DNA of 64,000 nucleotides from an uncultured Verrucomicrobia subdivision 3 bacterium. Its GTDB lineage: Bacteria; Verrucomicrobiota; Verrucomicrobiia; Limisphaerales; UBA11358. Shown here piece by piece: positions 7,837-34,062 of this stretch. Numbering within the stretch: position 1 is the stretch's first letter; each line of letters begins with the position of its first letter. The notes under the pieces were generated by a model, which saw only the letters and a list, made by a program, of their open reading frames with translations, made no database searches and was not told where the DNA came from. The stretch is from assembly GCA_903889895.1 (NCBI GenBank), contig CAISYZ010000257.1, positions 6,196 to 70,195 on the forward strand, in the 5' to 3' direction. Position numbers and translations under genes: made by a program.

Positions 7837-8697
7837 ATGCGAATCGCGTATTTCGATTCCGGCGATCCGGAAATGCACTTCGACAATCCGAACTTAATTT
7901 GGTCCGACCCATCGTATCTGCGTGAGCCGGGCGATCCCGGTTACATACCACCCTCTCCACCACCGACCCCAACCACTAAACATAAAATGAAAACTCCGCA
8001 CTGCCCCGTCCCTGTCATCATCCACAACGGCAACCTCATCGTCGCCGCCGCGAACAAATATCCCAAGGTCGCTGCCCGGATGCCCGCCAACTATCTCGCC
8101 GAGACGACCACAGCCCTCGGCAAACTGCCCACCGACATCACCGGCCAGAAAATTGCCCAAGGCGAGACCGGCAACCTCACTGCCGCGCAACAAGCCAACC
8201 TCGATTCGCTGCTGCATTGCATGAGCCAGGCCCGCAAGACTGCCAAACTCGCCTTTCCCGGCCAGACCGTGAAGTTGCATCAGGAATTTCAAATCGGCAC
8301 CCACGATTCACACGAGCTGAATGCCGTGTTGAGCCGCGCCGACATCATTCTGGCCTCCGTGCAAACCACGGCGAACCTACCCGCGCTGAAACTCAAAGGC
8401 TGGACCGATGCCGAAACGCAAACCTTCACCACCGTGCGCGGCACGTTTCCCGCCAGCACCACCACGCAGCAATCCGGCCAGAGCGACGCCAAAAAGGCGA
8501 CCGCCACGAAAGCCGCCGATGCCGCCGATGCCTACGAACATCTGTTGACCATCCAAAACGCCGCCGACTTGGAATTTCCCGCCACGAACGCGGCCAACGC
8601 CCCGATCCGCGCCGAATTCCGGCTGGGCATATTCCCGCCCGATCACCACACCCCGCCCGAACCGCCAACGCCGGCGCCCGTGACTGCGAAGCCGTGA
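7837..8697 (+). CDS. Hypothetical protein: 50-aa leader plus two helical repeats; array-1-associated
   Basis: Plausible codon usage, Pro-rich linker and tail, internal Met at 7987; no recognised family. Confidence 0.8.
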   Translation: MRIAYFDSGDPEMHFDNPNLIWSDPSYLREPGDPGYIPPSPPPTPTTKHKMKTPHCPVPVIIHNGNLIVAAANKYPKVAARMPANYLAETTTALGKLPTDITGQKIAQGETGNLTAAQQANLDSLLHCMSQARKTAKLAFPGQTVKLHQEFQIGTHDSHELNAVLSRADIILASVQTTANLPALKLKGWTDAETQTFTTVRGTFPASTTTQQSGQSDAKKATATKAADAADAYEHLLTIQNAADLEFPATNAANAPIRAEFRLGIFPPDHHTPPEPPTPAPVTAKP

Positions 8698-8920
8698 GGT
8701 TTATTCCAAGATAGTCAGTTGAGTATTTGTGCGGCGTGAAGGCCGCGCCGCGACTGCTTTCGTGATAATAGCCCAGCCATTGCTGGCTGGGAAAATATGC
8801 CATCGAACTTCCAAGTCCTGTCATGGATGGTAGACAATTTTCTTTCGTCCCTAATTGGACTGGGGTGCTGCTACGTGAGAGAGCTGGACAGAAATCACCA
8901 GGGGGAATATGGTTGGAAGC

Positions 8921-9577
8921 ATGAAACGAATGGGGCACCAAGTCCGTGTTTTGTTTTTTTTCCTATTTGGGCTGGTTCCGGTGGGTTGGGCGCAAATAGC
9001 TGAGATTTCCCCGTTTCATATTCTGCCCGAGGACGTGGTTCCCGACAGCGTCCGTCTGGTTCGTTTTAACACCAATTTTTTTGCCGTCCGGTGGACTTAT
9101 ACGGAAGCCGGCGCGCAAAAGTTTCTGGCGTTCAATGAAGCCCACGCCGGGCAGCGGGCGTGCACGGTGGTGGGGGATTATGAGACGCGGCCGTTCGAGG
9201 TCCGGTTCACGCCCATGCCCGAGTTCACCAACTATGCCGCCTGGAAGGCGGGCTGGCTCCGGCATCCGACCGACAAATTTTTCGGGCTGAACGAAACCGA
9301 AGTCACGGCTATCGCCGCCGCTCTGAGGTATGGCGATCCAAAATTCAGGTGTCTTTCAATCACCAATCCAGCCGCCGCGCCCATCAAGGGAATCCTGACG
9401 GATCCTAATTTTCGGATGGTGATTCACGCGCTGGAGCAAAGAAGCGGTTATGAAAATTTGGCGGAGCCGGAAGTAACCACGAGTTCCGGGCGGGGGCAAA
9501 ATTCCATCCGCATCCAAAATCTGGACTGGAATGTTATCGCCCCTATTACCAACCCGCCGCCCGCATTGGCTAAATAG
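8921..9577 (+). CDS. Exported hypothetical protein (SecDF-head-like N-part, secretin-like C-terminal fragment)
   Basis: Signal peptide; 'TEAGAQKF..F...HAGQ'; 'GILTDPNFRMVIHALEQRSG...AEPEVTTSSGR'. Confidence 0.6.
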   Translation: MKRMGHQVRVLFFFLFGLVPVGWAQIAEISPFHILPEDVVPDSVRLVRFNTNFFAVRWTYTEAGAQKFLAFNEAHAGQRACTVVGDYETRPFEVRFTPMPEFTNYAAWKAGWLRHPTDKFFGLNETEVTAIAAALRYGDPKFRCLSITNPAAAPIKGILTDPNFRMVIHALEQRSGYENLAEPEVTTSSGRGQNSIRIQNLDWNVIAPITNPPPALAK

Positions 9578-9596
9578 CTTGCCGCCGCAGGCGTGC

Positions 9597-9634
9597 TTCA
9601 CTGTTCCGTCACCCAATCGTCACACGGTTGTCAC
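9597..9634 (+). promoter_or_regulatory. Pho-box-like direct repeats upstream of phoB
   Basis: TTCAC/GTCAC/GTCAC/GTCAC at 9597, 9608, 9619, 9630 (11-bp spacing). Confidence 0.75.
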
Positions 9635-9679
9635 CGGATTGAAATTGTGTGACGAATTGCGGCGTGTCACACTGGCAGC

Positions 9680-10360
9680 GTGAAACCGCGAATTTTAGTT
9701 GTGGATGACGAGCCGGAAGCGGTGGAACTCGTCGAGTTTAATTTGAAGCAGGCCGGTTATGCCGTCACCACGGCGGCGGACGGCGCGGAGGCGCTCAAAA
9801 AGGCGCGCGGCCAGGTGCCCGACCTGATCATTCTGGACGTGATGTTGCCGGAGATGGACGGCTTTGAGATCTGCAAGACGCTGCGCCTCGACGCGGCCAC
9901 GGCCAAGGTGCCCATCATCATGCTCACGGCCAAAGCGGCGGAGATTGACCGCGTGCTCGGCCTGGAACTCGGCGCGGACGATTATCTGACCAAGCCGTTC
10001 AGCCCGCGCGAGCTGCTCTTGCGCGTGAAAAAAATCCTCGCCCGTTTCCAGACCGAGGAAAAGCCGAAGGAACAACTGCGCTTCGGCGATTTGCTGATTG
10101 ATTTGCCGCGCCACATCGTGAGCTGGAAGAACAAGCCCATCGAGATGACGGCGACGGAGTTCAAGCTCATCACCGTCCTGGCGCAGCGCGCGGGCCGCGT
10201 GCAGTCGCGCGACCAGCTTTTGCGCGATGTGTGGGAATACGACAGCCTGATTGACACCCGCACGGTGGACACGCACATGCGACGTCTGCGCGAAAAAATC
10301 GGCCCGGCCTCCAAGCATCTGGACACGGTGCGCGGCGTGGGCTACCGGTTTGTGGAATGA
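9680..10360 (+). CDS. phoB: OmpR/PhoB-family response regulator
   Basis: Receiver plus winged helix, 'TRTVDTHMRRLREK', 'TVRGVGY'; next to PhoR-like kinase and Pho box. Confidence 0.85.
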   Translation: MKPRILVVDDEPEAVELVEFNLKQAGYAVTTAADGAEALKKARGQVPDLIILDVMLPEMDGFEICKTLRLDAATAKVPIIMLTAKAAEIDRVLGLELGADDYLTKPFSPRELLLRVKKILARFQTEEKPKEQLRFGDLLIDLPRHIVSWKNKPIEMTATEFKLITVLAQRAGRVQSRDQLLRDVWEYDSLIDTRTVDTHMRRLREKIGPASKHLDTVRGVGYRFVE

Positions 10361-10433
10361 AGAAGTTGGTTTTGCCACGTTCCGCTGCTTGCGGTTAGTT
10401 TCTGCATTCTGCATTCTTACTTCTGCCTTTGCC

Positions 10434-11606
10434 ATGTGGCTTTTTCTTTTCATTCTCGCGCTCGCGGCGCTGGCCGGACTCCATTTCCGATGGCGGGCCA
10501 AGTTTCAGGCGCAGCGCGAGCAGCGCGCGGCGGAGATGGAGGCTTTTCAACGCAAGCAGCAGCAGACCTCGCTGGACGCGCAGGCGCAGCAAAAAGTTTT
10601 GTTCGATTCCATGCTCGAAGGCCTGCTGCTCCTCGACCGCAGCCGGAAGATTTACCTCGCCAATCGCACATTCAAAAGCCTGTTCGGCGTCAAGACCGAG
10701 CTGCGCGGCAAAACCGTCGTCGAGGCGCTGCGGTTGCACGAACTGGACGGCCTGCTCCAGCGCGCCGAAACCGAGAAGCAGGTGCTCGACTACGAAATCA
10801 AATTGCCGGGACTCGCCGAGCGTTGGTTGCAGGTGAACGCCGCCGCCATCACGAACGCCGCCGGCGAGCGCGACGGAACGATTCTGGTTTTCCACGATTT
10901 GACGCGGCTAAAACAGCTTGAGCGGCAGCGCGAAGAATTCGTCGCCAACGTCAGTCACGAGTTGCGCACGCCGCTTTCGCTCATCAAAGGCTACGTTGAA
11001 ACGTTGCTGGACGGAGCCAAAGACAATCCCGAAGTGGCCGAGCGTTTTCTGAAAATCATTGAGCGCAACGCGAACCGGCTGGATTTGCTCATCCAGGATT
11101 TGTTGACGATTTCCGCGCTGGAATCCGGGCGGATGAAACTGGAATTGTCGCCGGTGGATTTGCACGCGCTGACGGACAAAGTCCTGACGTTCCTGCACAC
11201 CAAGGCGGAAAACAAAAACGTCACGCTGATCAACGAACTGCCGGCACTCACGATGAATGCCGACGCGAACCGGCTTGACCAGGTGCTTGCGAACCTCGTG
11301 GACAACGCCATCAAATATGGCCGTGCGGAAGGCCTGGTCATCGTTGGTGGAAAAAAACTGGCCGATGGTGCGCTGGAAATTTTTGTGCGTGATGACGGGC
11401 CGGGCATTCCGGCGGAAGCGTTGGAGCGCGTGTTTGAAAGGTTTTATCGCGTGGACAAGGCGCGTTCGCGTGATCAGGGCGGCACCGGTTTGGGACTGGC
11501 GATTGTGAAACACATCGTCCACGCCCACGGTGGCGAGGTGCGCGTGGAAAGCGAACCGGGCAAGGGCGCGACGTTTTTCTTCACACTGCCGCAGCCATCT
11601 ATTTAG
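10434..11606 (+). CDS. phoR: PhoR-like sensor histidine kinase (TM, PAS, HisKA, HATPase)
   Basis: 'EFVANVSHELRTPL', 'FERFYRVDKARSRDQGGTGLGLAIVKH'. Confidence 0.85.
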   Translation: MWLFLFILALAALAGLHFRWRAKFQAQREQRAAEMEAFQRKQQQTSLDAQAQQKVLFDSMLEGLLLLDRSRKIYLANRTFKSLFGVKTELRGKTVVEALRLHELDGLLQRAETEKQVLDYEIKLPGLAERWLQVNAAAITNAAGERDGTILVFHDLTRLKQLERQREEFVANVSHELRTPLSLIKGYVETLLDGAKDNPEVAERFLKIIERNANRLDLLIQDLLTISALESGRMKLELSPVDLHALTDKVLTFLHTKAENKNVTLINELPALTMNADANRLDQVLANLVDNAIKYGRAEGLVIVGGKKLADGALEIFVRDDGPGIPAEALERVFERFYRVDKARSRDQGGTGLGLAIVKHIVHAHGGEVRVESEPGKGATFFFTLPQPSI

Positions 11607-11904: not shown

Positions 11905-11975
11905 TCGGCATAATGGAATAGATATGCTCCTTTATTGACACTCCGCATACATTCCGTTAATTAAATGATGTCCGT

Positions 11976-12182: not shown

Positions 12183-12209
12183 CCTTTGAAAAACCAACAT
12201 ATTCGCATT

Positions 12210-12683: not shown

Positions 12684-12686
12684 CCT

Positions 12687-14165: not shown

Positions 14166-14284
14166 AAAAAGCTTAAGTCTTTAGGCCGATTCCTGCCAAG
14201 GTTCCGGCCTTTTTCATTTTCATTCGAGAAAATCAGCGGTTGAAAGTTCTTTTTCACCGCAGTAATTTTTTCTATCCTCCGCGT

Positions 14285-14761: not shown

Positions 14762-14763
14762 CC

Positions 14764-18899: not shown

Positions 18900-18901
18900 T
18901 C

Positions 18902-20248
18902 ATGAAAGGCAAAATTCTCATTGTGGACGACAACGCGCAGTTGCGCGAGTTGCTCAAGGCCGTGTTGTCGGACGATTATCTGGTGGCGGAAGCCGACAGC
19001 GGCGCCGCGCTGGAAAAAGCGTTTTCACAGGAAGCCCCCGACGTGGTGCTGCTCGACCTGAAGCTGCCGGATGCCAATGGTCTCGACCTTCTGCCGCAGA
19101 TCAAGAAAAACTGGACTGACACCGAGGTTGTGGTGCTCACTGGCGAGGCGGCCACGTTCGAGGCCGCTGTCGAAGCCACCAAGCGTGGCGCGTATCATTT
19201 CATCAACAAGCCGTTCGACACGCAGGTTCTGCTCGTCACGTTGGGTCGTGCCATTGAGAACAAACAGCAGAAAGAAGAGAACCATTCGCTTCGCCGCGCC
19301 ATCTCCACCATGAGCGGCAGTTCGGCGCCCGTGTTTCAAAGCCCGCAGATGCAGACCGTCGTCCGCACCATTGAGCGCATCGCACCGAGCGACGTGACGA
19401 TTTTGATCACCGGCGAAAGTGGCACCGGCAAGGAAGTCATCGCCGACCTCATCCACGCTTTAAGTCCGCGCAGCAAAAACCGCATCGTCAAGGTCAACTG
19501 CGCCGCGTTGCCCCGCGAACTCATCGAAAGCGAACTCTTCGGCTCGGTGAAAGGCGCGTTCACCGGCGCGAACACCGACCGTGACGGTCTGTTCCGCCAA
19601 GCTGAGGGTGGCACGCTGTTTCTCGACGAAATTTCTGAGATGCCGATTGATACGCAGAGCAAACTCCTGCGCGTGTTGCAGGATCAAAAAGTCCGGCCCG
19701 TCGGCGGCAAGTCGGATTACCAGACCAACTGCCGCATCATTGCCGCGACCAATCGCAAGCCCGAGGACGCCATCAAGGACGGCAAGCTGCGCGAAGATTT
19801 GTTCTACCGCATCAGCGCCATTTCCGTTTATCTGCCGCCGTTGCGTGAACGTCGCGACGACATCATGCCGCTGGCCAACTCCTTCTTGAAGCGCTTTTCC
19901 GCGCAGGCCAACCGCACGCTGCGCAGTTTCACGTTGCAGGCCGCCGACCGGCTGACCAGCTTCGAATGGCCGGGCAACATCCGCCAGCTCCAGAATGAAA
20001 TCCAACGCGCCGTCCTGCTTTGCGAAGGGCCGGACGTAGACTCCAGCGATTTGTCCGTCAGCGACATCAAAATCATTCCGTCCGAAGGCCACGACACGAG
20101 CTTCACACTGCTCGAAGGCGTCGAGCGCAACGCCATCATCCAGATGCTGCGTGAAACCGGCGGCAACAAGCTGGAGACCGCCAAGAAACTCGGCATCGGC
20201 CGCCAGACGCTCTACAACAAGATCAAGGCCTACGGGATTGAAGCCTAG
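18902..20248 (+). CDS. Sigma-54-dependent NtrC-family response regulator
   Basis: Receiver, GESGTGKE, GAFTGA, WPGNIRQL, Fis HTH. Confidence 0.93.
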   Translation: MKGKILIVDDNAQLRELLKAVLSDDYLVAEADSGAALEKAFSQEAPDVVLLDLKLPDANGLDLLPQIKKNWTDTEVVVLTGEAATFEAAVEATKRGAYHFINKPFDTQVLLVTLGRAIENKQQKEENHSLRRAISTMSGSSAPVFQSPQMQTVVRTIERIAPSDVTILITGESGTGKEVIADLIHALSPRSKNRIVKVNCAALPRELIESELFGSVKGAFTGANTDRDGLFRQAEGGTLFLDEISEMPIDTQSKLLRVLQDQKVRPVGGKSDYQTNCRIIAATNRKPEDAIKDGKLREDLFYRISAISVYLPPLRERRDDIMPLANSFLKRFSAQANRTLRSFTLQAADRLTSFEWPGNIRQLQNEIQRAVLLCEGPDVDSSDLSVSDIKIIPSEGHDTSFTLLEGVERNAIIQMLRETGGNKLETAKKLGIGRQTLYNKIKAYGIEA

Positions 20249-20306
20249 TTTTAGTTCTTAATTTTAAGTTTTTTGTTGGCAGCGCGGCTGTGCTCCAACT
20301 AAAAAC

Positions 20307-22034: not shown

Positions 22035-22076
22035 GCGCGGAGTTTAACGAAAATCCGCGCGGGGAAAATGAATTTG

Positions 22077-22469
22077 TCAGCCGCCGTCGTTGCTGGGCAG
22101 CCGGCAGGCGTTGGAAACCTTGTAACGGTTGGCGGCAAATCTGCGGTAGCTCCAATCAAAGATTTTCCGGCCGGCCGGCGCGACGGAAAAAAGGTAAATC
22201 GGATATGCCCACCAGATGCGGCGCATCGCGTAGCGGTAAGTGTCGGCGCCCGAAACCAGTTCGCCGTTCGCGAGGAGCAGCCGCAAATCCTGCAAAAGTT
22301 CGGCGTCGCTCATTGCCAGTTTTTCGCGCACCCAATCGGCTTGCAGCGGCGCGATTTCAAAGCCGCGCTTCTGCAAGGTGCTTTCCCAAAACGGAACCCA
22401 GCGACGGCAGAATCCGCATGATTCGTCGTAGAGAATCCAGCCAGCGGGCGCGGTCTTTTCCGGTTTCAT
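22077..22469 (-). CDS. DCC1-like thiol-disulfide oxidoreductase (DUF393)
   Basis: 'YDESCGFC', 'Y...A.NRY'. Confidence 0.8.
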   Translation of the reverse strand: MKPEKTAPAGWILYDESCGFCRRWVPFWESTLQKRGFEIAPLQADWVREKLAMSDAELLQDLRLLLANGELVSGADTYRYAMRRIWWAYPIYLFSVAPAGRKIFDWSYRRFAANRYKVSNACRLPSNDGG

Positions 22470-23194
22470 ATTTTGACGCCGTTGCTTACGGTCACGGCGG
22501 AGCCATCGGCGAGAAAGGCGGACGCCGGCGGGCGGCTCAATAATTTTGCGAACGCGGCTCCATACAAACCGGACGCATCGCAATCCAATTTGGCCGAGGC
22601 GGCAGCAATCGCGTTCCAGCGCGGATGCTCGACGCGGTATTCCATCGTCGAACCGTCGCGCTGGCGCGCATAACCCCAATAATGTTCGGCGATGAATTCC
22701 GTCAGCGAGCCGGCCGCAAGGGGGTCGGACGCACCTTCGGTTTTTAGGTGGATGAAATTTTCGCGACCGCCGAATTGCCAGGAATATCGGATGGATTTAG
22801 GCTTTTCGCCGCTCGGTTCAAGCCGGTGCGACATCGGCAGCGCGATGTATTTCTCATTGTAAAACTTGCGCGCGACCAATGCGATGGCCGGGCGGGGGAC
22901 GATTTCCTTGATGAAAGTCACGCCGCGCCGCCAGCCGTCGTCGGCTTTGCGCCGCACATAAAAGCGCAGGTTCACTTCCTCAAAATTTTGGTGGAACGGA
23001 ATCGGAAGTCCCTTCACGCGGGTCTTGAGAAACATAAACCCGACGAGGCTGACAAAAGTTTTTCCGTTCCAAAAATCCAGCTCCGTGCCCGCAGGCACGA
23101 ACGGCGCGACAATTTCCGGCGCAACTTCGTAATTCAGCATCGCGAGCCAACGCCATTCCGCCGAAATAAAAACTTTTGGTGATTTGCCGTTCAT
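22466..23194 (-). CDS. YqjF/DUF2071 family protein
   Basis: 'W..L.M.NY.V', 'F.EVNLRFYV', 'Y.VEHPRW'. Confidence 0.8.
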   Translation of the reverse strand: MNGKSPKVFISAEWRWLAMLNYEVAPEIVAPFVPAGTELDFWNGKTFVSLVGFMFLKTRVKGLPIPFHQNFEEVNLRFYVRRKADDGWRRGVTFIKEIVPRPAIALVARKFYNEKYIALPMSHRLEPSGEKPKSIRYSWQFGGRENFIHLKTEGASDPLAAGSLTEFIAEHYWGYARQRDGSTMEYRVEHPRWNAIAAASAKLDCDASGLYGAAFAKLLSRPPASAFLADGSAVTVSNGVKI

Positions 23195-25524
23195 TTTTGC
23201 TTCCATCGCAGCAGCCGCAGTGCGTTGCCAATGACGATCAAATCCGAAATGCCCATCGCCGCCGCGCAGAAAATCGGGCTGATGACGCCGCACGCCGCCA
23301 GCGGCACGCCGAGCGCGTTGTAAAAAAAAGCCCAGAACAAATTTTGCTTGATGGTGCGCAAAGTCGCGCGCGCCAGACCGAGCGCCTCCGGCACGGCTTC
23401 AATTTCTGATTTCAGCAGGATAATATCCGCCGCCTCGCGCGCCACGTCGCTCGCACGGCTCACTGCGATGCCGAGGTCAGCCTGCGTCAGCGACGGCGCG
23501 TCGTTGATGCCGTCGCCCACGAACGCCACGCGCTCGCCGCGCGACGGGGGCGTCGCGCCCACATTCTGCGACGGGGCGTCACAGCCACGCGCTTGAAGTT
23601 TTTTCACAAACTCCGCCTTTTGTTCCGGTCGCACTTCGGTAAACACATTTTCCGCCGCGATGCCGACTTGCTTGGCGATGCTGGCCGCCGTGAGTGAGTT
23701 GTCGCCGGTGATCAAATAGATTTTCAGCCCGTGCTGCTGGAGCTGTTTCACGACCTTCGCCGAATGCGTTTTCACCGTGTCGCGCACGGCGAAGAGGCTG
23801 AGCAATTCCTTTTCCGCCGATAGGCCGACAATTGTCGTGCCCTGCGCCGTCCATTCGGCGATAAATTTTTCGCCCGCCGCCAAATCCACGCCGCCTTCGC
23901 GTAGCCAGCTGAGCGAACCGAGGCGAATTTCCGATTTCCGATTTCCGATTGCCGATTTGGCTTCCACGCCGCAGCCGCAAATTTCCCTCCAGTCGGTAAA
24001 TTCAACTTTGTCCGAAGAAATTTTTGCAATCGCCTGACTGATTGGATGCGTGGAATTTCTGGCGAGCGCCGCCGCCAGTTTTTCCAATTGGCAATTGGCA
24101 ATTGGCAATTGGCAATCTAGCTGTGCGGCCACTTCCGGTTTGCCCAGCGTCAGCGTGCCGGTCTTGTCAAAAACCACCGCCGTGATTTTGCCGGCTTTTT
24201 CTAAGGCCACACCATCGCGGATCAAGATGCCGCGTTTCGCAGCGGTGTTCGCGCTCGCCATGATGGCGGCGGGTGTGGCCAAACCCATCGCGCAGGGACA
24301 CGCGACAATCAAAACACTGGCGGCGATGACAAATGCCTTGTCCGCGCCGGAATGGACAAACCAAAAGATGCCCGCTGCCAGCGCGATGGCGACGATAATC
24401 GGCACGAAGACGTTGCTGATGCGGTCGCCGAGGCGCTGGATGTCGGCGCGACTGGTCTGCGCGCGTTGCACGGCGGCGATGATGTGTGCCAGTGCGGTGG
24501 CTTCGCCGGTGGCGGTCACGCGCATAATTAGGCGACCGTTTAGATTCACCGTGCCGGCAAACAGTTCAGTGCCGGATTTTTTATCGGCGGGAACGGATTC
24601 GCCGGTGAGCATGGCTTCGTCCACGGCTGATTCGCCCTCCAGCACCACGCCATCCACCGGCACGCGGTCACCGGGGCGGAGCGCGAGACGGTCGCCTATT
24701 TTTAATTCCGCCACAGTGACATCAATTTCCACTTGCTGGTTCGGTGCCTGTCCGGAAGGACTTGCCGATTGCCGATTGCTGATTGCCGATTTGGGAAATG
24801 ACAATTTGCGAAGGTCAAACGGCTGGCCGGTCTGATTTGAAATTTGATATTCGGGATTTGAAATTCTTCGGGCCGTCTGCGGCGCGAGCTGCAACAAGGA
24901 TTTTAGCGCGCTGCTCGCTTTGTCGCTGACGCGCGCTTCAATCCAGTGGCCGGCGCTGATGAGCGAAATGATGGCGGCGGCTTCCATGAAATAGAGGTGT
25001 CCGCAACTGCTGCTGAACAAAACCCAGCAACTGAAGCCGAACGCCGTCGTGGAGCCGAGCGCGACGAGCGCGTCCATGTTGGACTGACCGACTTTGATTT
25101 GCCGCCACGCGCCGCGATAAAACTGCGCGCCGCAAAAAAGTTGCACGACGGCGGCGAGCGCAAACGACAGCCAGCGGAACCAGCCGGTCATCATCAGGCC
25201 GAAACCCCATTCGCCAACCATCAGCGCGGTGGTGACGGCGAGGCCGAGGATCAGATTCCATTGCCAGCGGCTTTGCCGCGCCGGTTCGCCGGATTTTTCG
25301 GGAACAATTTCTTTTGCCGCAAAACCGGCCTTGGCAATGGCGGTGAGAATTTCCGGAACACTCTTCGCTTCGGCGGAATGCCAGCGCACACTGGCGCGTT
25401 CCGTCGCCACGCTCACGCTGACGCTGTGGACGCCGGTGATTTTCTGCGCGGCCTCGGTGACTTTGCGGGCGCAGTTGTTGCAGGTCATGCCGGTGACGCG
25501 CAGTTCGGTGGTGGGCAGAGCCAT
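23191..25524 (-). CDS. copA: Cu(I)-type P1B ATPase carrying several in-frame repeat insertions
   Basis: HMA GMTCNNC, TGES, CPC, DKTGTLT, GDGIND, YN motif. Confidence 0.9.
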   Translation of the reverse strand: MALPTTELRVTGMTCNNCARKVTEAAQKITGVHSVSVSVATERASVRWHSAEAKSVPEILTAIAKAGFAAKEIVPEKSGEPARQSRWQWNLILGLAVTTALMVGEWGFGLMMTGWFRWLSFALAAVVQLFCGAQFYRGAWRQIKVGQSNMDALVALGSTTAFGFSCWVLFSSSCGHLYFMEAAAIISLISAGHWIEARVSDKASSALKSLLQLAPQTARRISNPEYQISNQTGQPFDLRKLSFPKSAISNRQSASPSGQAPNQQVEIDVTVAELKIGDRLALRPGDRVPVDGVVLEGESAVDEAMLTGESVPADKKSGTELFAGTVNLNGRLIMRVTATGEATALAHIIAAVQRAQTSRADIQRLGDRISNVFVPIIVAIALAAGIFWFVHSGADKAFVIAASVLIVACPCAMGLATPAAIMASANTAAKRGILIRDGVALEKAGKITAVVFDKTGTLTLGKPEVAAQLDCQLPIANCQLEKLAAALARNSTHPISQAIAKISSDKVEFTDWREICGCGVEAKSAIGNRKSEIRLGSLSWLREGGVDLAAGEKFIAEWTAQGTTIVGLSAEKELLSLFAVRDTVKTHSAKVVKQLQQHGLKIYLITGDNSLTAASIAKQVGIAAENVFTEVRPEQKAEFVKKLQARGCDAPSQNVGATPPSRGERVAFVGDGINDAPSLTQADLGIAVSRASDVAREAADIILLKSEIEAVPEALGLARATLRTIKQNLFWAFFYNALGVPLAACGVISPIFCAAAMGISDLIVIGNALRLLRWKQK
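23540..23588. repeat. REP-like palindrome doublet in frame within copA
   Basis: CGCGACGGGGGCGTCGCGCCCAC and TGCGACGGGGCGTCACAGCCAC; extra peptide before RVAFVGDG. Confidence 0.7.
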
Positions 25525-25597
25525 TCGTTCGGCTTCAGGATGCCACCCGCCGGCCAGTTCCGCAATCTAACGGAAGCTTTGGCAGCCTCCTGATTTG

Positions 25598-25671
25598 CGG
25601 AGCGCGGCATTCATGCCGCTTCAATGTCGCTTGAAATGCTACCGTTGAAACGGGCTAAAGCCCGCGCTCCG
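25598..25671. repeat. REP-like inverted-repeat element
   Basis: CGGAGCGCGG-CATTCATGCCGC ... CGGGCTAAAGCCCGCGCTCCG: terminal inverted repeat with two inner hairpins. Confidence 0.75.
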
Positions 25672-25694
25672 AAGCAATTTAGGATGCTTCCGAG

Positions 25695-26005
25695 CCTTTG
25701 CCAAAACCTTTGGAACGGCTGGGAAACCTTTGGGAACGCTTTCCAAACCTTTCGGAAGGCTTCCAAAACCTTTGGTAACGTCTAAAAGGTTTTGGAAATG
25801 TTTCCAAAAAGTTTTGGAAGACTTTCGGCGGAAAACAAGATGCGCCATTAACATTAAAGTTTTTTCCAAAGGTTTTTGAAGGCTTTCCAAAACCTTTTTT
25901 AGAGACAAAAGAAGGTTTAGAAATGTTTCCGAAACCTTTGGTAACGGCTAAAAAGGTTTTAGAAATGTTTCCAAAAGGTTTTGGAGACTCGCCAAAGGTT
26001 TTGAC
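25695..26005. repeat. Degenerate 21-bp-period tandem array 2, quasi-palindromic unit TTCCAAAA(CC/GG)TTT(T)GGAA, ~13 units with a gap near 25825-25860
   Basis: Consecutive units tttccgaaacctttggtaacg / gctaaaaaggttttagaaatg / tttccaaaaggttttggagac / tcgccaaaggttttgacaaag. Confidence 0.88.
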
Positions 26006-26325
26006 AAAGCCCCCCGATTCTGGTCAAAACCGCTCGAAAATGGGTGAAAACCGCATTTTTTGCCTCGCCCGGCGACTTTGCGGCCGCGGCCAAGGCATTG
26101 GCGGCTTGGTTTTAACCGGCATTAACCTCGCCAATTTTACTCCCTATCCGCAGCGGTTGGGGAGCAAGCCGGCTGGTCGCGCCTAAATCGGATGAAGGCG
26201 GAGGTGAGGTGCCACTCAACTGTTTCTTGCAACTATCAATTTTCCCGCGCAAACTCGCCGCTGTCCGAAATAAAAACAACGACCAAATATATTAACTAAA
26301 CAATTTGCGTAGCTACGGCTACGGG

Positions 26326-26441
26326 CTGCTCCGAAAACCGAGAATTTTCCAAGCCCGTTACACGAACCGACCGAGCGCGCCCAAATGGGCGCGGCTTGGC
26401 GTGTTCTCGTGTAACAGGCGCTTCTCGGTGCCTCGGAGCAG
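26326..26441. other. Long imperfect hairpin (candidate ncRNA or MITE) upstream of methylase
   Basis: Nested pairs CTGCTCCGA/TCGGAGCAG, ACCGAGAA/TTCTCGGT, GTTACACGA/TCGTGTAAC, CGCGCCCA/TGGGCGCG. Confidence 0.7.
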
Positions 26442-26505
26442 GGACGCGGCGAGTCCGCGCCTCTTCTTTTTAGAATTCCCGTTTCCGCCCGCTCGCAGCG
26501 GAAAC

Positions 26506-27702
26506 ATGGCACACGACAATCTCAAAAACGCAAAACGGGCAAGGAACGACGAGTTCTACACTCAATACGCCGATATTCAGAAGGAGATTGAAGCGTATCT
26601 GGAATACGATGCCGATGTGTTCCGGGGCAAGGTGGTTTATTGCAATTGCGACGATCCGTTTGAGAGCAATTTCTTCCGCTACTTCATTCTCAATTTCAAA
26701 AAGCTCGGTTTGAAGCAGCTCATTACCACCAGCTACAAACCTTCGCCCGTGGCAAATACGCAACTGGAATTGTATGGCGATGACAACACGCTCCCAAAAG
26801 CAAAAGGTCGTCCGAAGTTAACGGCCAATAAATTTATCATCAATGAAGTGCATGACATTGACGGGGGCAGCGAATTCAACTTGAAATCCGTGGCCAGAAA
26901 GTTAAAGGCCAACAAAAACAACGAGTGGACTCCGCTGGAAGGCGACGGCGATTTTCGCAGTGCCGAGTGCATCGAACTGCTGAAACAATCCGACATTGTG
27001 GTGACCAACCCACCGTTCTCTTTGTTTAAGGAGTATGTTGCCCAGCTCGTGGAATACGGGAAAAAATTCCTAATCATCGGCAACACCAATTCAATTACCT
27101 ACTTGGAGATTTTCCCACTTATTAGGAACAACAAAATTTGGCTGGGTTGCACAAATTTCAATGTCGGAATGTTTTTCAAGGTGCCCGACGACTGGGAGCG
27201 CTTTCACCACATTGACGATGAGACGGGCTGGAAAATAGCGCGAGTTTCAACGTCGTGTTGGTATACAAACCTCGACCACGGTCGCCGCCATGAGCCTTTA
27301 AACCTCATGACTATGGCAGAGAACCTTAAATATAGTAAAAACCTGAAAGGAAAGTCAGCGTATGACCGCTACTTCAACTACGATGCGATTGACGTCGGCA
27401 CCTATAAGGAAATTCCCAGCGACTACGATGGCGTAATGGGCGTCCCAGTAACCTTCCTCGACAAATATAACCCTGACCAATTTGAGATAGTCGGAAACAG
27501 TGACGACGGCAGTATGATGCGCGAGCTTGGAGTCCGAGCCCTTGGTCATAAATTCATTAGCGCATATCGCGCTCGCGGAGGCACTGGCCACTATAGTCCT
27601 GGCATGCGAATGCTTGGTCTGCTCGAACCTCAGGCACGAATCATCTTCAAGCGCCTCCTAATCCGGCATCGCACGAAGCCCACCAAACTAGAGAAAAGAT
27701 GA
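26506..27702 (+). CDS. Adenine-specific DNA methyltransferase, EcoRI family
   Basis: NDEFYT, YCNCDDP..SNF, GDGDFRS.EC, VTNPPFSLF, MGVPVTFLDKYNPDQF. Confidence 0.9.
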   Translation: MAHDNLKNAKRARNDEFYTQYADIQKEIEAYLEYDADVFRGKVVYCNCDDPFESNFFRYFILNFKKLGLKQLITTSYKPSPVANTQLELYGDDNTLPKAKGRPKLTANKFIINEVHDIDGGSEFNLKSVARKLKANKNNEWTPLEGDGDFRSAECIELLKQSDIVVTNPPFSLFKEYVAQLVEYGKKFLIIGNTNSITYLEIFPLIRNNKIWLGCTNFNVGMFFKVPDDWERFHHIDDETGWKIARVSTSCWYTNLDHGRRHEPLNLMTMAENLKYSKNLKGKSAYDRYFNYDAIDVGTYKEIPSDYDGVMGVPVTFLDKYNPDQFEIVGNSDDGSMMRELGVRALGHKFISAYRARGGTGHYSPGMRMLGLLEPQARIIFKRLLIRHRTKPTKLEKR

Positions 27703-28868
27703 AGACCACACTCCAAATCGACATCACCGTCGCCGACATCTGCGATGGCTTTGTTTACAACGAACTGGAAGGCAAGGGGCTTTTCGGTTTGTCCGGCAAA
27801 CTCACAATTCAGCCGGAATATCAGCGTAATTATATTTACGCTGCCGACGGCGGTAAAAAAGAGGCGGCGGTCATCGAATCCGTTCTCAATCGCTATCCGC
27901 TGGGGTTGATTTATTTCAATAAAGTGGCTGAAGACAAATTTGAAGTTTTGGACGGACAACAGCGCATCACCAGTCTTGGGCGTTTCATTGCCGGCAAATT
28001 TGCCATCAAAGATGAGGATGGCAATGAGCAGTATTTCAGCGGCATGGCAAAGGACAAGCGGGACAGAATTTTAGAAACCGAGCTGACGATTTACGAATGT
28101 GAGGGCAAGGAAAGTGAAATTAAAAAATGGTTTGAGACAATAAACATTGTCGGCGTCCCGCTCAATAAGCAGGAATTGCTCAACGCCATTTTTTCCGGTC
28201 CGTTTGTGACGCTCGCCAAGGCGGAGTTCAGCAACAGTCAAAATGCCAACATCCAGAAATGGAGCGCGTATGTTTCCGGCAGTGCCAACCGACAGCAATT
28301 TTTGGAATGTGCGCTGGATTGGGTGAGCAATGGCGACATCAGCGGTTACATGAGCCAGCATCGCAAAGATAAAAACATCAAAGAACTAAAAACCTATTTT
28401 AACACCGTCATTGATTGGGTGTCTGGTGTGTTTACAGAAGTTGAAAGCGAAATGTGCGGGCTGGAGTGGGGACGACTTTACGAAACATATCACCAGAAAG
28501 CATACAATCCCGCGAAGGTTTCGGCGGAAGTGCAGAAGCTATATGAGGATTCCTATGTTTCTGACAAACGTGGCATTTTTGAGTTCATCTTGGGCGGCTC
28601 AAAAGATACCAAGCTGCTGAATGTCCGGGTCTTTAATGAGGCAACGAAGAAATCCGTTCATGTCACGCAGACTAAAAAGGCCAAAGCGGAAGGGAAATCA
28701 AATTGCCCGCATTGCGCCATTGGGCATGATGCAAACAAAGCCAAAATTTGGGATCTCAAAGACATGGATGCCGACCATGTGGCTGCGTGGAGCAAAGGCG
28801 GCGGGACAAATGTTAAAAACTGCCAGATGTTGTGCAAGACGCACAACCGCGCAAAAGGCAATCGGTAA
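27699..28868 (+). CDS. DUF262 (GmrS/ParB-like) plus HNH endonuclease, putative restriction enzyme
   Basis: QPEYQRNY, DGQQRITS, C-terminal CxxC...DH...GG.T...NCQMLC..HN..K; overlaps methylase stop. Confidence 0.88.
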   Translation: MKTTLQIDITVADICDGFVYNELEGKGLFGLSGKLTIQPEYQRNYIYAADGGKKEAAVIESVLNRYPLGLIYFNKVAEDKFEVLDGQQRITSLGRFIAGKFAIKDEDGNEQYFSGMAKDKRDRILETELTIYECEGKESEIKKWFETINIVGVPLNKQELLNAIFSGPFVTLAKAEFSNSQNANIQKWSAYVSGSANRQQFLECALDWVSNGDISGYMSQHRKDKNIKELKTYFNTVIDWVSGVFTEVESEMCGLEWGRLYETYHQKAYNPAKVSAEVQKLYEDSYVSDKRGIFEFILGGSKDTKLLNVRVFNEATKKSVHVTQTKKAKAEGKSNCPHCAIGHDANKAKIWDLKDMDADHVAAWSKGGGTNVKNCQMLCKTHNRAKGNR

Positions 28869-28915
28869 CTCCTCACCCCGGACCGCTCCTCGTTTGGGCG
28901 AGGCGAGGGGGAAGA
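28869..28915. repeat. Degenerate REP-like palindrome / terminator
   Basis: CTCCTCACCCCGGACCGCTCCTCG..GGGCGAGGCGAGGGGG resembles CCCCTCACCCCGGCCCTCTCCC-type repeats. Confidence 0.4.
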
Positions 28916-28918
28916 ATT

Positions 28919-29572
28919 TCAGCGGCGGACGGTTTTCATCCGCGCGTGCCAGTCGCGGAGGTGCGGGCGCGCTTTCGGCAATTCGTAATTTTCGGAGAAC
29001 AAAAAGTTTTCCAGCATCCCGAACAGGTCGAAGTCCACAAACAGCGGGCGTTCGCCCAACAAAAATTCCGAGTGCGCGAGCATCTGTTCGTAAGGCGTAA
29101 GTGCGGCGGTGAGCTTTTGCAGCCAGAGTTTTTCGTCGCGCCGCCATTGGTCAATGCAGCCGCGACCGAACTTGCGTTCCTTGAAGCGCAGGTATTGCAA
29201 CTGCTCGGCGGGCTTCACGAAGTCGCGATACTGGCTGTCGTTCAAGCGGAACGCCGCGCCCTCGACTTCGCTTTCGATGTGCCGCCAGAGCAGCGATTGC
29301 ACGCCTTCGCGGTCGGCGGGAAACAAACCGAGCTTGAGTTTCGCATCAAGATATTTGGCGACAATCTGCTGGTCGTCGGTGTCGTCAAAAATAATTTTCG
29401 TGCCGTCGCGCAAGGTCGGCACGCCGTAGTATTTTTGCTTCGTGATTTTCCAGACGAGGTCGCGCGTTTGCGGCGGGAGGTTGGTGGTTTTGAATTTCAC
29501 GCCCGCGAATTCCAAAATGCGTCGCTGGACGATGCAGAACGGGCTCCAGGGAAATTGAATCAGTTCAATCAT
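28919..29572 (-). CDS. Glutathione S-transferase family protein
   Basis: 'WSPFC', 'VPTL.DG', 'FLLGERP...DF.LFG'. Confidence 0.8.
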   Translation of the reverse strand: MIELIQFPWSPFCIVQRRILEFAGVKFKTTNLPPQTRDLVWKITKQKYYGVPTLRDGTKIIFDDTDDQQIVAKYLDAKLKLGLFPADREGVQSLLWRHIESEVEGAAFRLNDSQYRDFVKPAEQLQYLRFKERKFGRGCIDQWRRDEKLWLQKLTAALTPYEQMLAHSEFLLGERPLFVDFDLFGMLENFLFSENYELPKARPHLRDWHARMKTVRR

Positions 29573-29653
29573 GTCCAATATTTCCGCCATCAGGCGCAGG
29601 AACTCAAGCGTAAAGCCGCTTTACTCTTTTGGGCGCGTGGCTAGAATCGCCAC

Positions 29654-30328
29654 ATGGCTGGCGAATACGATTCCACCGAATTTCTTGACACCGATTTTCT
29701 CGCGCAGAAGTCGCCTGCCGCCGCGCCTGTGTCCGGCTATGGTCGCGCGCCGTCGCCGGATGACGTGAACCGCAAGGTGGTTGAGGCGCAACAGAAACTC
29801 GTCGAGCTCAAGCGGGCGCAGGAGGAACTGGAACGCGAGCGCGCCGGGCTGGAAGAACTGCGCCGCCGGCAGAATGAATTTCAGACCGGTCGCGACGAGG
29901 TCATCCAAAATCTCACGCGCGGACTCGGCCTGCTGGAAGAGGCAGAGTTTGTCGCGCGCCGCGACGCCGAGCAGATGGTCAAAACCGTTGGTGATTTCCG
30001 CACGGCGCTGACGAAAGTGCAGGCCATCAACGATGCGGCGTGGACGAAGGAGAATTTTCAAATGGAACTCACCCGCGCGCTGACGACGATTGAAAATGCG
30101 CGGATGGAATGGAATTCTGCGCGGCTGAAAATCTCCGCGCTGGCAGGCGAGACCAAAAATGCCGCCGCGCCGCTGGACAAAAATTCTTCCGCCGTGGCCG
30201 CCGTGCCGTCGCTGGCGGAACTACCATTCGGCCAGCTTTGCAAAATCGGGCTGGCGATGACGTGGCCGTTGCTGCTCGTGGCGCTCGGCGCGTTGGGCAT
30301 CTTCATCGCGATTCTTCTGCGCAAGTGA
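29654..30328 (+). CDS. Hypothetical coiled-coil protein with C-terminal TM anchor
   Basis: Coiled-coil composition, hydrophobic tail. Confidence 0.8.
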   Translation: MAGEYDSTEFLDTDFLAQKSPAAAPVSGYGRAPSPDDVNRKVVEAQQKLVELKRAQEELERERAGLEELRRRQNEFQTGRDEVIQNLTRGLGLLEEAEFVARRDAEQMVKTVGDFRTALTKVQAINDAAWTKENFQMELTRALTTIENARMEWNSARLKISALAGETKNAAAPLDKNSSAVAAVPSLAELPFGQLCKIGLAMTWPLLLVALGALGIFIAILLRK

Positions 30329-30329
30329 C

Positions 30330-30845
30330 ATGGGCTTGCTGAACAAAAAGCCGGATCCGATCACCGACAAGGCGCGCGCGCTGGCGGCGGAAATCGCCGC
30401 ACTGGAAGCCGAGATCAAAAAACTTGATACGCAGGTCCAGCGCACGGCCACGCCAAAACTGCGTTCCACTGCGACGCCCGCCGGCGAAACCATTTCCCGC
30501 GCGTCGGAAAGACCTACGCCGGTTCCGAAGCCGAGCGAGCCGGTTTTTGAAGAAGTGAAGGCGGCCAAAATTGCGTCGAACATAACGGAAGTGCCGGAGT
30601 TATTTAACGAACTCGGTGTGCGCAAATATGATTTGCCGGCGCTGTTCAACCGGTTGCGCAACCATCTGCGCGGGCCGACGACGAGCAATCCGCGCTTGGT
30701 GAATTATCTCGCGGCCGGCGGCGTGCAGGGCTTGCGGCCGCTGCGCTACGAAAAGCGCGTGGCGCGTAACCGCTTCATCTGGCTGGTGGTGGTCGTGACG
30801 TTTGTGCTGTTTGGATTATTTTACTGGCTGCTGCCCAAACATTGA
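30330..30845 (+). CDS. Hypothetical protein with C-terminal TM anchor
   Basis: Tight operon spacing, N-terminal coiled coil, C-terminal TM helix. Confidence 0.75.
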   Translation: MGLLNKKPDPITDKARALAAEIAALEAEIKKLDTQVQRTATPKLRSTATPAGETISRASERPTPVPKPSEPVFEEVKAAKIASNITEVPELFNELGVRKYDLPALFNRLRNHLRGPTTSNPRLVNYLAAGGVQGLRPLRYEKRVARNRFIWLVVVVTFVLFGLFYWLLPKH

Positions 30846-30850
30846 AAATT

Positions 30851-31345
30851 ATGGAGTTGCTCATCGAATTGCCGGTTGCGACCGCCGACGGGATATTTCT
30901 GGCCCACTATTCTGACCAAGGATTGGCCGAACTTGACTGGCCGGCGGCCAAAAATGCGCGGGTCAGTTCGGGAAATCGAAAAACGTCGGTGCAAATTCTT
31001 CGTTGGCACAAGCTCACGACGGAGTCTTTGAAAAAAGCTTTGGCTGGCCATGAGGCGAAGGAATTGCCGCCGCTGGATTGGTCGGGCAAAACGGAATTTC
31101 AAATATCCGTCTGGCGCGCGATGCTGAAAATTCCGACGGGCAAAACGAAAAGCTACGGCGAAATTGCGGCGGCTATTGGCCGGCCAATGGCTGTGCGCGC
31201 CGTGGGCGGCGCGTGCGGGGCGAATCCGATTCCGGTGCTAGTGCCTTGCCACCGGATTCTGGCCGCGAACAAAAAGATTGGCGGCTTTTCCGGCGGGCTG
31301 CAGCGGAAGCGCGATTTGCTCGCGCGCGAGGGCATCAAAATTTAG
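30851..31345 (+). CDS. ogt: Methylated-DNA--protein-cysteine S-methyltransferase
   Basis: SYGEIA, RAVG.ACG.NP, PCHR. Confidence 0.92.
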   Translation: MELLIELPVATADGIFLAHYSDQGLAELDWPAAKNARVSSGNRKTSVQILRWHKLTTESLKKALAGHEAKELPPLDWSGKTEFQISVWRAMLKIPTGKTKSYGEIAAAIGRPMAVRAVGGACGANPIPVLVPCHRILAANKKIGGFSGGLQRKRDLLAREGIKI

Positions 31346-31446
31346 CTGCAGATTCCAAAAGATTAAGGCCGCAAGAACGCACAAAAAGCGCAAAATGATT
31401 ATTCATTCTGCGCCTTTGCGATTTGGATGGCAAAAATTTCCTGCGT

Positions 31447-32172
31447 TCAATTCAGCGCCGCTTTGCAGGCGGCTTCGATTTCGGCCTTGGCTTCGGCGGC
31501 TTCCTTTTCAAATTCGTCGCTCTTCTTGAATTGCTTCACGATGGCCTGGGCGAGGACGCGACCGGCGTAAATGTCGGTCGGATAATGCCGGGCAATCTGC
31601 ACGCGGTGCCAGCCCATCTGCCGGGCGTGGGCGATGATGGCGTCGTGCTGGGCGGGCAGCAAATCGGCAAGGACGAGCGCGAGCACCATGGTTTCGGTGG
31701 AATGGCCGCTGGGATAGCTGAAGGATTTTTCCAATTTGCCATTGGCGAGGCTGGGGTCGGTGGTGAACGGGCGCGGACGTTGAAAATGATCCTTGCCGAG
31801 ATCCGTCACGGTTTCGGCGTCTTTCTGGACTTTTTCAAAAAAAGCCGTGGTCTTGGGCAGGTTGGTCTCCACAAAATAAGCGCCGACGGTGGTGGTGAAA
31901 TTGAAGACGGAAAATTTCTTTTCGTCGTAGGCGGCCTGTTTGTCGGCGTCGCTGGCGGCTTGATAGACGGAGCGGACCGTCGCCATGTCAGCGGCCTGCT
32001 CGGCGGAATCAGGCAACGGCGGCGGCGGGAGGAGTTCGCTGGCGTTGGGTTTGCCCTCCTTGAGGAAATTGAGCGACGACTCCTTGGCAAAGGTGGCCAA
32101 AGTGGTAGCTGTCAGTAACGTGGCAAACATCGCCACCCGCATAAAACGGGCCGATTGGGGAATAAAAATCAT
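31447..32172 (-). CDS. Exported PAP2 / class A acid phosphatase
   Basis: K-x6-RP, SYPSGH, 'R.QIARHYPTD'; start uncertain. Confidence 0.88.
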   Translation of the reverse strand: MIFIPQSARFMRVAMFATLLTATTLATFAKESSLNFLKEGKPNASELLPPPPLPDSAEQAADMATVRSVYQAASDADKQAAYDEKKFSVFNFTTTVGAYFVETNLPKTTAFFEKVQKDAETVTDLGKDHFQRPRPFTTDPSLANGKLEKSFSYPSGHSTETMVLALVLADLLPAQHDAIIAHARQMGWHRVQIARHYPTDIYAGRVLAQAIVKQFKKSDEFEKEAAEAKAEIEAACKAALN

Positions 32173-32217
32173 GATTGGTAACAAATTGCGGGTTGCGAGT
32201 GGCAAAGAACTGGTTGT

Positions 32218-33096
32218 TTACTCTCCTGAGGCTGCTGGCACCTGCGTGCCTGAGCAATCCCAATTGATGTCAGGTTGCCCGGGATCCGATCCTGCAGTAG
32301 TGGCAGGACTTTGAACTACCACGTAACTATATTTGAAGTAAGAAGCATGTCCGTCACTGAAAGTGAGGAGACCGCCCTGACTGTGCCGCGATGAGAAGCG
32401 GGTTGTATAAACCTGCGGGGTGGCAAGCTTGATTTGGTTGGCGGTGCTGCCGGCATATGGAGTTTCTGCCGAACGGTTGCGGACATCGGCAAACAGAACC
32501 AAGGCCGAAGGGTGAACAATCTTCGAGGACTTCAGGGGAACTGTGTAGCCAGCAATGGCACTTTCAGCTGCGGTAGAGTGTGAATTCATCCCGTAACTAA
32601 ACAACGGGCGCGCGCCGGGAATCATGTCATACTGGTCGGAGCCCGCCTGTTTATCCACTGGGTCAATGCCTTGTGCGAAGGCGGTCGGACAGGTAAAAAT
32701 GGACTTGGAGCCATAGAAGATTGTAGGGTCCAAAGCCCAAGTATAGAGCGGTTTGTTAGCGACGAGGGGCGGCAGGGCATTGAACCAGACATCGTCACCT
32801 TGCCCATTTTGATGATAACTCCCGATGGACAGCCAGACCGGGTTGTCCTGATCCGTGCTAGTGGCATAGCCCTTCTGAAATTTCGGGTAGGGAAACACTT
32901 GACTGTTGTCATCCACATACATGTTTTCCGCCAAACCCCATTGTTTGGAGTTGCTCAGGCAAACCGCCTGTTGCGCCTTCGCCTTGGCCTTGGCCAGGGC
33001 CGGCAGCAGCATTGAGGCAAGAATCGCGATGATGGCGATGACCACCAAAAGTTCGATTAATGTGAATCCGGCGTTTTGCTTTTGTTTCAAGTTCAT
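32218..33096 (-). CDS. Prepilin-type N-methylation domain protein with H-X9-DG motif
   Basis: [25 protein letters not shown]; '[14 protein letters not shown]'. Confidence 0.92.
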
Positions 33097-33168
33097 GGCT
33101 CTGGCGGTTGATTTTTTAAATTTGGGAAAACGAACAAATTCCCTGTCCGCACAGAATGAGTCATCCAC

Positions 33169-33206
33169 GTTACAGGTGAATGGCGTAATTGTTACGTTTG
33201 CGTGAC
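33169..33206 (-). promoter_or_regulatory. Pho-box-like repeats upstream of prepilin/phosphatase genes
   Basis: Minus strand GTCAC/GTAAC/GCCAT/GTAAC at exact 11-bp spacing. Confidence 0.65.
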
Positions 33207-33247
33207 AAGCTGCCCACTTCCCGGCTGTGGCCAACGACCAAAAGCAA

Positions 33248-33277
33248 ACCCCGCCGACCATCGCTGGAAGGCGGGGT
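33248..33277 (-). terminator. Putative terminator of the FN3-domain gene
   Basis: ACCCCGCC/GGCGGGGT stem followed by TTGCTTTT on minus strand. Confidence 0.5.
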
Positions 33278-33294
33278 GAAGGTAATTAAACCTC

Positions 33295-34062
33295 TCAGGT
33301 GCTCATGCAGTTCACCGATGGGCAGTAATCGCTGGCCAAGTTTCCGCCGCCGAGGGCGCAAGCATCCACCGTATAGACCTTGCCCGGCGTCAGGTCGGGC
33401 AAAACAATGTTCAGCGTGGACGAAAAATTCTTGGTATAGACCAACGCGCCCGCCGCGTCGCGCACGCGCAGCAGATAGCCGCGCGCATGGGCCGAACCTT
33501 GCAGCTTCACCCCGAGGCTGCCGCTGCCCTTGTTGAAGAGGTTCACGATGGCTGGCACATCCGGGGTCATCGCGGCGTGATGGGCGGGAATAATCACGTC
33601 GAAGCCCGACAACATCGCCTGCTCCGGGGTGATGCCTGGAATGGCCTCGATGTAAGCCGCGAGCTGTCGGAGCAAAGCGATCAGAATTTCCTTCTTGGCG
33701 TTTTTGTCGGCAGTGAGCGGTTTGCCAAGGTTGGACGCGGCGGCATCGGCATCATGAAACGCGCCTTGGGCGGCGTCCAGATTGGCGATGGGGAAGGGCG
33801 GGTCTTTGAAGATGGCCGCATTCTTCGTCATCTGCGTGGCCACGTTGCTGGCGAATTTGTCCAGCGGCAGATCCATCAATTGCGCGAACGCGAGGGAGAT
33901 ATGGAACAGCATAACTTTTTTATTGGTCGGCTGGGGAGCCACGGGCGCGTCGTAATAAACCTTGTCCCCCCACTTGTAAGGCTGCCCGGTCAACGGATTG
34001 ATTCCGTTCCAAACCGCGCCATATTTTACGGGGTCGCTCATGCTCTCGTTCCAGCCAGGCAT
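33295..34062 (-). CDS. Hypothetical protein: 50-aa leader, helical domain, C-terminal fibronectin type III-like domain; array-3-associated
   Basis: 'L..LTPGKVYTVDA.A.GG...SD' FN3 signature; internal Met at 33912; upstream TTGACA at 34179-34174. Confidence 0.8.
   Translation of the reverse strand: MPGWNESMSDPVKYGAVWNGINPLTGQPYKWGDKVYYDAPVAPQPTNKKVMLFHISLAFAQLMDLPLDKFASNVATQMTKNAAIFKDPPFPIANLDAAQGAFHDADAAASNLGKPLTADKNAKKEILIALLRQLAAYIEAIPGITPEQAMLSGFDVIIPAHHAAMTPDVPAIVNLFNKGSGSLGVKLQGSAHARGYLLRVRDAAGALVYTKNFSSTLNIVLPDLTPGKVYTVDACALGGGNLASDYCPSVNCMST

Follow-up and report, generated by a model that had tools for sequence, protein, structure and literature searches.

A small aromatic leader peptide before several array-linked genes of an uncultured Verrucomicrobia bacterium: a candidate docking tag governed by two putative start codons

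Why should two array-linked genes, whose products otherwise align poorly, both begin with a short leader rich in aromatic residues, and does the methionine at the end of that leader serve as a start of its own? The two genes lie in a stretch of 64,000 nucleotides (nt) from an uncultured Verrucomicrobia subdivision 3 bacterium (assembly GCA_903889895.1, contig CAISYZ010000257.1, positions 6,196 to 70,195), the whole of which we call the window. A preliminary description of the window had noted them as array-associated. Gene 1 and gene 2 each lie downstream of their own array of 21-bp repeats; both open reading frames (ORFs) and both quoted N-termini are present as described, with an ATG at 7987 and at 33912. 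We put at about even odds (roughly 0.5) the reading that the leader is a portable docking tag carried by a long isoform, each leader-bearing gene giving two isoforms of which the short one would probably dominate. The parts of the two genes are listed here, with the predicted local distance difference test (pLDDT) as the confidence of structural models and lengths in amino acids (aa).

7837-8697, + strand: ORF of gene 1, 286 aa, with an ATG also at 7987
7837..7950, + strand: leader 1, an aromatic/Asp/Gly/Pro mini-domain, aa 1-38, from the upstream start ATG 7837 (model pLDDT 79-88)
7951..7986, + strand: Pro/Thr/Lys linker of gene 1, taken to be an A/C-rich region for initiation at the core start (pLDDT <50 at residues 43-51)
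7987..8697, + strand: core of gene 1 from the junction ATG, predicted to comprise two helical units (about aa 51-155 and 156-268), with a Pro-rich tail
34062-33295, - strand: ORF of gene 2, 255 aa, with an ATG also at 33912
34042..34062, - strand: seven additional in-frame codons from the first ATG of gene 2, seen in none of its homologs
33913..34041, - strand: leader 2, 43 aa counted from the conserved start Met8 and containing the A-rich run that precedes the core start
33583..33912, - strand: core of gene 2 from the junction ATG, one predicted helical unit
33295..33573, - strand: FN3 domain of gene 2 and stop codon

The leader itself bears the marks of a coded peptide. Across 58 leaders the mean proportion of synonymous differences (pS) is 0.62, against 0.20 for non-synonymous differences (pN), and pS exceeds pN in 1644 of 1653 pairs. 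The fraction of non-consensus bases at codon positions 1, 2 and 3 of the same leaders is 0.16, 0.14 and 0.37, and the residues W, N, G, D, P and Y are invariant. These substitution patterns indicate that the leader is conserved at the protein level. It is probably also folded, as the gene 1 model gives residues 1-40 a pLDDT of 79-88 with three short strand pairings, followed by a linker that is disordered (<50). Neither leader looks like a Sec or Tat signal: the best 8-residue hydropathy is 0.11 and 0.5, the net charge is -5 and 0, and there is no RR in either. Composition, and specifically the lack of a hydrophobic stretch, thus excludes a Sec/Tat role; the non-Sec targeting or assembly function offered in the preliminary description stays a candidate. 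The best match of the leader to PDB sequences (E-value, E, of 0.068) was taken as chance, and an Atlas search with the leader gave no usable match. A likeness between leader 2 and the CBM5/12 chitin-binding motif, in the first half of the latter, was rejected, the motif being variable in homologs and its second half missing.

The two leaders appear to be versions of one element. Compared directly by profile, leader 1 and leader 2 match only weakly (E 0.014), and the kinship is instead transitive, running through intermediates. A 37-position profile of the first-type leader, that of gene 1, searched over 1.84 billion representatives, gave 152 matches, and in 14 of the 150 that were listed the motif INP.TG.P[FY] of the second type, that of gene 2, stands in register, between the first and the second aromatic anchor. 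Eight of the 150 are long, repetitive, unrelated proteins and were set aside; two of these show a PGDPGY turn, which thus occurs outside leaders as well and which is duplicated in some leader copies. Twelve complete bridging leaders were built into a profile of their own and run against 57,563 six-frame segments of the source genome (G000). It recovered five leaders, including the two in the window, at E 8e-11 to 1e-4, with the next match at E 1.2. Whilst the bridges had been chosen by their second-type motif, a profile built from second-type leaders alone still gives E 6e-7 to 3e-4 for 11 of the 12 and 0.035 for the remaining one. Profile-profile comparison gives E 4e-24 for the first type against the bridge and 9e-12 for the second type against the bridge, and locus L063 is a further intermediate. 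The plan common to the leaders is two to four aromatic residues, most of them followed by Asp, Asn or Gly, at least six residues apart, with a Pro-rich linker after them.

What the leaders do not share is their length. The preliminary description gave both a common extent of 50 residues ending at Met51. All 15 close homologs of gene 2 with a full leader begin at its Met8 (247-248 aa), which leaves a leader of 43 aa, and first-type junctions are spread over positions 46-56, falling at 51 in only 4 of 58. The comparison therefore indicates that the matching Met51 in the two genes is a coincidence.

The leader is also optional. In the family of gene 1 (family A) it is absent from 20 of 29 distinct loci, 18 of which have an in-frame stop within 27 codons. 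On the family tree its presence has changed at least two to three times, and bearers and non-bearers are mixed among cores that are 80-90% identical. The preliminary description had expected homologs to keep an open in-frame leader; since most relatives do not, these distributions point to an optional, swappable module rather than to an artefact. Broken leaders with intact cores occur at L088, L136 and L034. The L136 gene is the same as that of L076 (C199 in G000) with one A fewer in the junction run, so that its leader is out of frame and its core intact; this difference is either a sequencing error or a slippage switch. Separately, at L077-L079, L111, L135 and L154 an array and a truncated leader run into unrelated DNA with no core gene.

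The module caps at least six core families. The first-type leader precedes the cores of families A, B and D, the HU-like/Ig proteins, P0197/P0314 and P0247; the second type precedes core E, that of gene 2, and L063. Cores that carry the first type and do not align with gene 1 are found in a helical-plus-Ig family (41/54 loci) and in a two-unit helical FN3 family (6), and a wider search added 17 leader-capped HU-like/Ig proteins and two small helical families. Within the HU-like group, DUF4469 is matched by 5 of the 17 at E<=0.01, two of them above the Pfam cut-off, and the HU fold itself is indicated weakly, with HU/TF1 in six of seven PDB matches (best E only 0.022). Families B and D are linked weakly to each other (E 5e-5), and so not all leader-capped cores are unrelated. 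The source genome (4.1 Mb, 76% complete), which the names of homologs place in Verrucomicrobiota near subdivision 3 / Limisphaerales, has 26 loci of related core families, a count that omits one row (C135) as a likely false FN3 match; the leader is on ten of them, of which a profile identifies five, the other five being short forms recognised by eye. No relative was found in the viral collections IMG/VR or, with a bridging protein as query, among GenBank phages.

How far the cores of the two window genes are related is less clear. Those two proteins had been described as distant paralogs; their leaders are indeed akin through the bridging sequences, whereas the core alignment offered in support does not hold up, BLASTP of the two proteins giving E 0.48 and the comparison of helical unit with helical unit by profile a non-significant E 0.11. 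Whole-family profiles of gene 1 and gene 2 match at E 0.03 over the leader and junction only. In length and position, the helices modelled for unit 1 of gene 1 resemble those of the single gene 2 unit (58-80, 86/92-107/109, 114/116-139/140 and 144/146-150), and paralogy of the helical cores is plausible. Core-to-core profiles among five families gave no significant helical match save between the two units of family D (E 0.002); FN3 is shared. The domain plan proposed earlier fits better. Gene 1 is modelled as all helical with two units, consistent with a repeated helical unit, and these match each other weakly by profile (E 0.024, 90 columns). Gene 2 has one helical unit plus FN3, the latter a seven-strand sandwich by structural match (Foldseek E 1e-6; Z-score 14.1, root mean square deviation 1.5, 88 aligned). 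Its fold search lists were filled by FN3, and its helical unit was thereby barely probed. For gene 1 the fold search returned generic helical bundles only, with no Foldseek match under E 0.001 and a best Z-score of 8.7. Pfam, PHROGs and NCBIfam scans named neither window protein, the one NCBIfam row (E 0.006) falling far under its cut-off. By language-model features the named family most like the gene 1 core is DUF6261 (PF19775; score 0.89, the family on 32% of the cluster); this is a lead only, and gene 1 has no Pfam match. Two further members of the gene 1 family, P0068 and P0105, are 313 aa long; P0068 has a C-terminal FN3, and thus the FN3 domain is optional too.

The junction between leader and core carries the signals of a start. 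Its codon is ATG in 58 of 64 leader ORFs, the other six comprising one GTG, one longer linker, three stubs and one frameshift. Where the junction residue is Val and the DNA is available, it is encoded by GTG in all four cases, two of them preceded by GGAGG. A makes up 61% of the 21 nt before the junction and 51% of those before leaderless cores, compared with 31% at 805 heuristically chosen genome starts (5% of which have a Shine-Dalgarno sequence) and 18% before the leader starts, whose context is pyrimidine-rich and A-poor. Over the last eight codons before the junction, synonymous choice favours codons ending in A: 33% against 2% in the cores for Thr, 62% against 4% for Pro and 87% against 34% for Gln. 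These signatures indicate that the core keeps its own start at the junction. Given the synonymous bias and the A-rich context, what was described as a Pro linker with a 'PT-x-K' basic patch appears to be, for the most part, what the A/C-rich initiation region of the core yields when read as protein. The retained start, together with the same bias upstream of it, makes long and short isoforms from leader-bearing genes likely; the earlier proposal of two translation starts is thus well supported by signatures in the DNA, namely the junction start codons and their A-rich or GGAGG context.

Taken as a mechanism, the docking-tag reading runs as follows. A single small module, an aromatic peptide, stands in frame ahead of various array-linked genes. 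Each of these genes would use both of its start codons in the cell, making a long, tagged protein from one and a short, untagged protein from the other. The short form would be the main product, because the leader start lacks the A-rich context. The folded acidic-aromatic head would act as a binding tag on a flexible tether, docking the long form onto a shared partner. The same tag would serve helical, FN3 and HU-like cores and so probably does not bind the core that carries it; this breadth points instead to a common outside partner or to self-association. The module would spread by recombination, together with the array and promoter. We also entertain, tentatively and with more doubt than belief, a broader version in which unrelated genes (helical, helical-FN3 and HU-Ig) have captured a mobile cassette that joins promoter, 21-bp array and leader, the leader being an optional address tag, set by the choice of start codon, that routes proteins into one undescribed assembly or export pathway.

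Upstream of the leaders lie the following features:

7560..7776, + strand: array 1, 21-bp repeats with an CCCCAATT-type core and variable spacers, upstream of gene 1
7365..7925, + strand: open frame through array 1, ending inside the leader in another frame (predicted ORF)
34255..34456, - strand: array 2, 21-bp repeats of TTAAGGAA type, partly palindromic, upstream of gene 2
34150..34179, - strand: putative sigma70-like consensus match (10/12), between array 2 and gene 2

At 11 family-A loci (L002-L007, L081-L085 and L087; window 7365-7925) a sigma70-like site and a conserved ATG stand upstream of the array, and the frame opened by that ATG runs through the array for 132-400 codons. This frame has no stops in 130 codons, compared with 8 and 23 in the other sense frames. 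In three family-A loci this frame ends 12 nt before the core start, and in one it fuses to leader and core. Such an arrangement suggests that transcripts may include the array and that it may be translated as an upstream ORF. In the gene 2 family (L031-L062), 17 of 25 leaderless loci have a sigma54-like motif 73-113 nt above the core start, as against none of the five leader-bearing ones (Fisher p 0.009, for loci that are kin and not independent).

From these data one could argue for translational control: both starts would be used, the leader would be a regulatory peptide, and ribosomes on it (at its polyproline run) or on the array frame would tune initiation at the core, the long product having no job of its own. 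The Pro-rich run before the junction, the sigma70-like sites and conserved ATGs that open a frame through the whole array, and the coincidence of leader presence with an absent sigma54-like motif would all fit. However, leaders nearly always run on in frame into a core instead of ending in a stop, their invariant residues and predicted fold are kept, with the PGDPGY unit duplicated in some copies, and one antisense frame of the array is also nearly stop-free (4 stops), so that the open array frame may reflect composition. We regard this explanation as unlikely. Less likely again is that leader-bearing genes yield the long form alone, with the junction Met and the A-rich run left over from the start of a leaderless ancestor. 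The deeper-branching family-A loci in our sample are all leaderless (midpoint root), so the leader may be a recent gain, and ancestral start regions can persist for a while; yet the synonymous sites of the leader are highly diverged whilst the junction stays ATG or becomes GTG, twice with GGAGG, and the synonymous A-bias persists.

The opposite view, that only the short form matters, would have the leader hitch-hike on a mobile array-promoter cassette, its peptide conserved for the sake of the cassette or rarely translated. Consistent with this are the poor start context of the leader, the array and leader stubs without a core, and the flanking genes of the window, which no relative from another species shares (only near-identical loci have the same neighbours). 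We nevertheless think it improbable, as the protein-level constraint and the frame-keeping insertions and deletions in some 60 leaders on different cores require translation under selection. We give least weight, little short of dismissing it, to the explanation that the leader is an export or pro-peptide removed by cleavage at the basic patch: a Lys/Arg cluster does precede the core, and FN3 and Ig domains are usually extracellular, but there is no hydrophobic stretch, the net charge of the leaders is neutral or negative, most relatives work without a leader, and the junction resembles a start codon, not a cleavage site.

A number of observations also tell against the leader being a docking tag on one of two isoforms. 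The model of the gene 2 leader has low confidence (pLDDT 42-66), and the leader matches no known family or solved structure in family scans, PDB sequences or the Atlas. Its range is narrow, the first type occurring in 10 of 163 genomes of the genus and in 2 of 401 drawn from the phylum. The share of leader-bearing loci in family A (9/29) is biased upward, as those nine were fetched through the leader motif. Lys codons are AAA at 87% inside the leader and at 85% before the junction, so that only the Thr, Pro and Gln bias is specific to the junction, and the loci are kin, so that counts and p-values overstate their independence. As for RNA, metatranscriptome X1 has contigs nearly identical to the window at 7828-8011, which takes in leader and junction, and at 8260-8554, with two contigs at 99% or more within 20001-40000, one of them inside gene 2; X1 is a single low-depth, unstranded run that was found through gene 1, and its contigs may include DNA, so we take them as a weak hint of expression only.

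Other features of the surroundings may be recorded here. A periodicity scan counts 72-77 arrays in the source genome. The window holds a third 21-bp array in two parts (25688-26009), between a heavy-metal ATPase gene and a pair encoding an EcoRI-like methylase and a GmrSD/HNH protein, and no gene of these families was found adjoining it. Short 7-bp tandem runs lie at 23927-23958, 24085-24116, 24762-24791 and 52135-52168. Divergent from gene 2 across array 2 is a gene for a 1554-aa protein with two Shr-like haemoglobin-interacting domains (34586-39250). Elsewhere in the genome (C217, C33 and C89), three related ORFs of about 120-130 aa, with an ArsR-type winged-helix look by eye, stand beside array calls.

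Known systems offer partial parallels. In cargo-loading and docking peptides, such as encapsulin and microcompartment tags and the long and short forms of CcmM, a short terminal tag on a flexible linker is common to unrelated proteins. The present case differs in that no shell or partner gene adjoins the window genes and the leader has no sequence match to solved structures. In-frame dual-start genes are established for infB, clpB, mrcB, arcB, speA and rpn/ypaA, according to the covered part of bioRxiv 10.1101/520783. As described there, these genes resemble the window genes in having a primary and an internal in-frame start within one gene. The short form may be a stand-alone gene elsewhere (rpnE-C and ypaA), much like the leaderless cores, and in speA the 5'-proximal start may change targeting, as the leader might. 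The leader genes likewise appear to have an inner start with initiation signals of its own, conserved as a start codon. The difference is that each case in that part of the source concerns one gene family, whereas here unrelated families have one extension in common, and close relatives gain, lose and swap it.

The leader-capped HU-like family with DUF4469 appears to match the Ig-fused subclade of HU-HIG (PMC5499826; Pfam DUF4469). As far as that source was covered, HU-HIG proteins resemble the window families in being scattered, multi-copy and fast-diverging, with no operon partners; the window proteins differ in having helical, not HU, cores. The covered part of that account mentions neither the leader nor the 21-bp arrays. 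Constant-length 20-21-nt tandem repeats are likewise established in bacteria (PMC8161180, in the part covered), and share with the window arrays a fixed 21-nt period, a short conserved core with a variable remainder, and many families per genome; the same part ties them to no downstream gene family or leader. In the open literature we found no account of the leader or of its sharing across families, subscription papers and supplements lying outside this coverage; the supplements of PMC5499826 and PMC8161180 could list some of these proteins.

For the annotation of these families, one consequence is that gene callers split them into 'short' and 'long' forms which partly reflect real presence or absence of the leader. 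Dual starts are known gene by gene, and a single folded tag shared and traded among unrelated families would be unusual. The leader also ties together the helical-FN3 families, the HU-HIG families and the 21-bp arrays, each of which had been left unexplained. If the reading of a tag added by choice of start codon holds, the leader would be an undescribed shared docking tag, and its 38 residues offer a concrete bait for finding the common partner.

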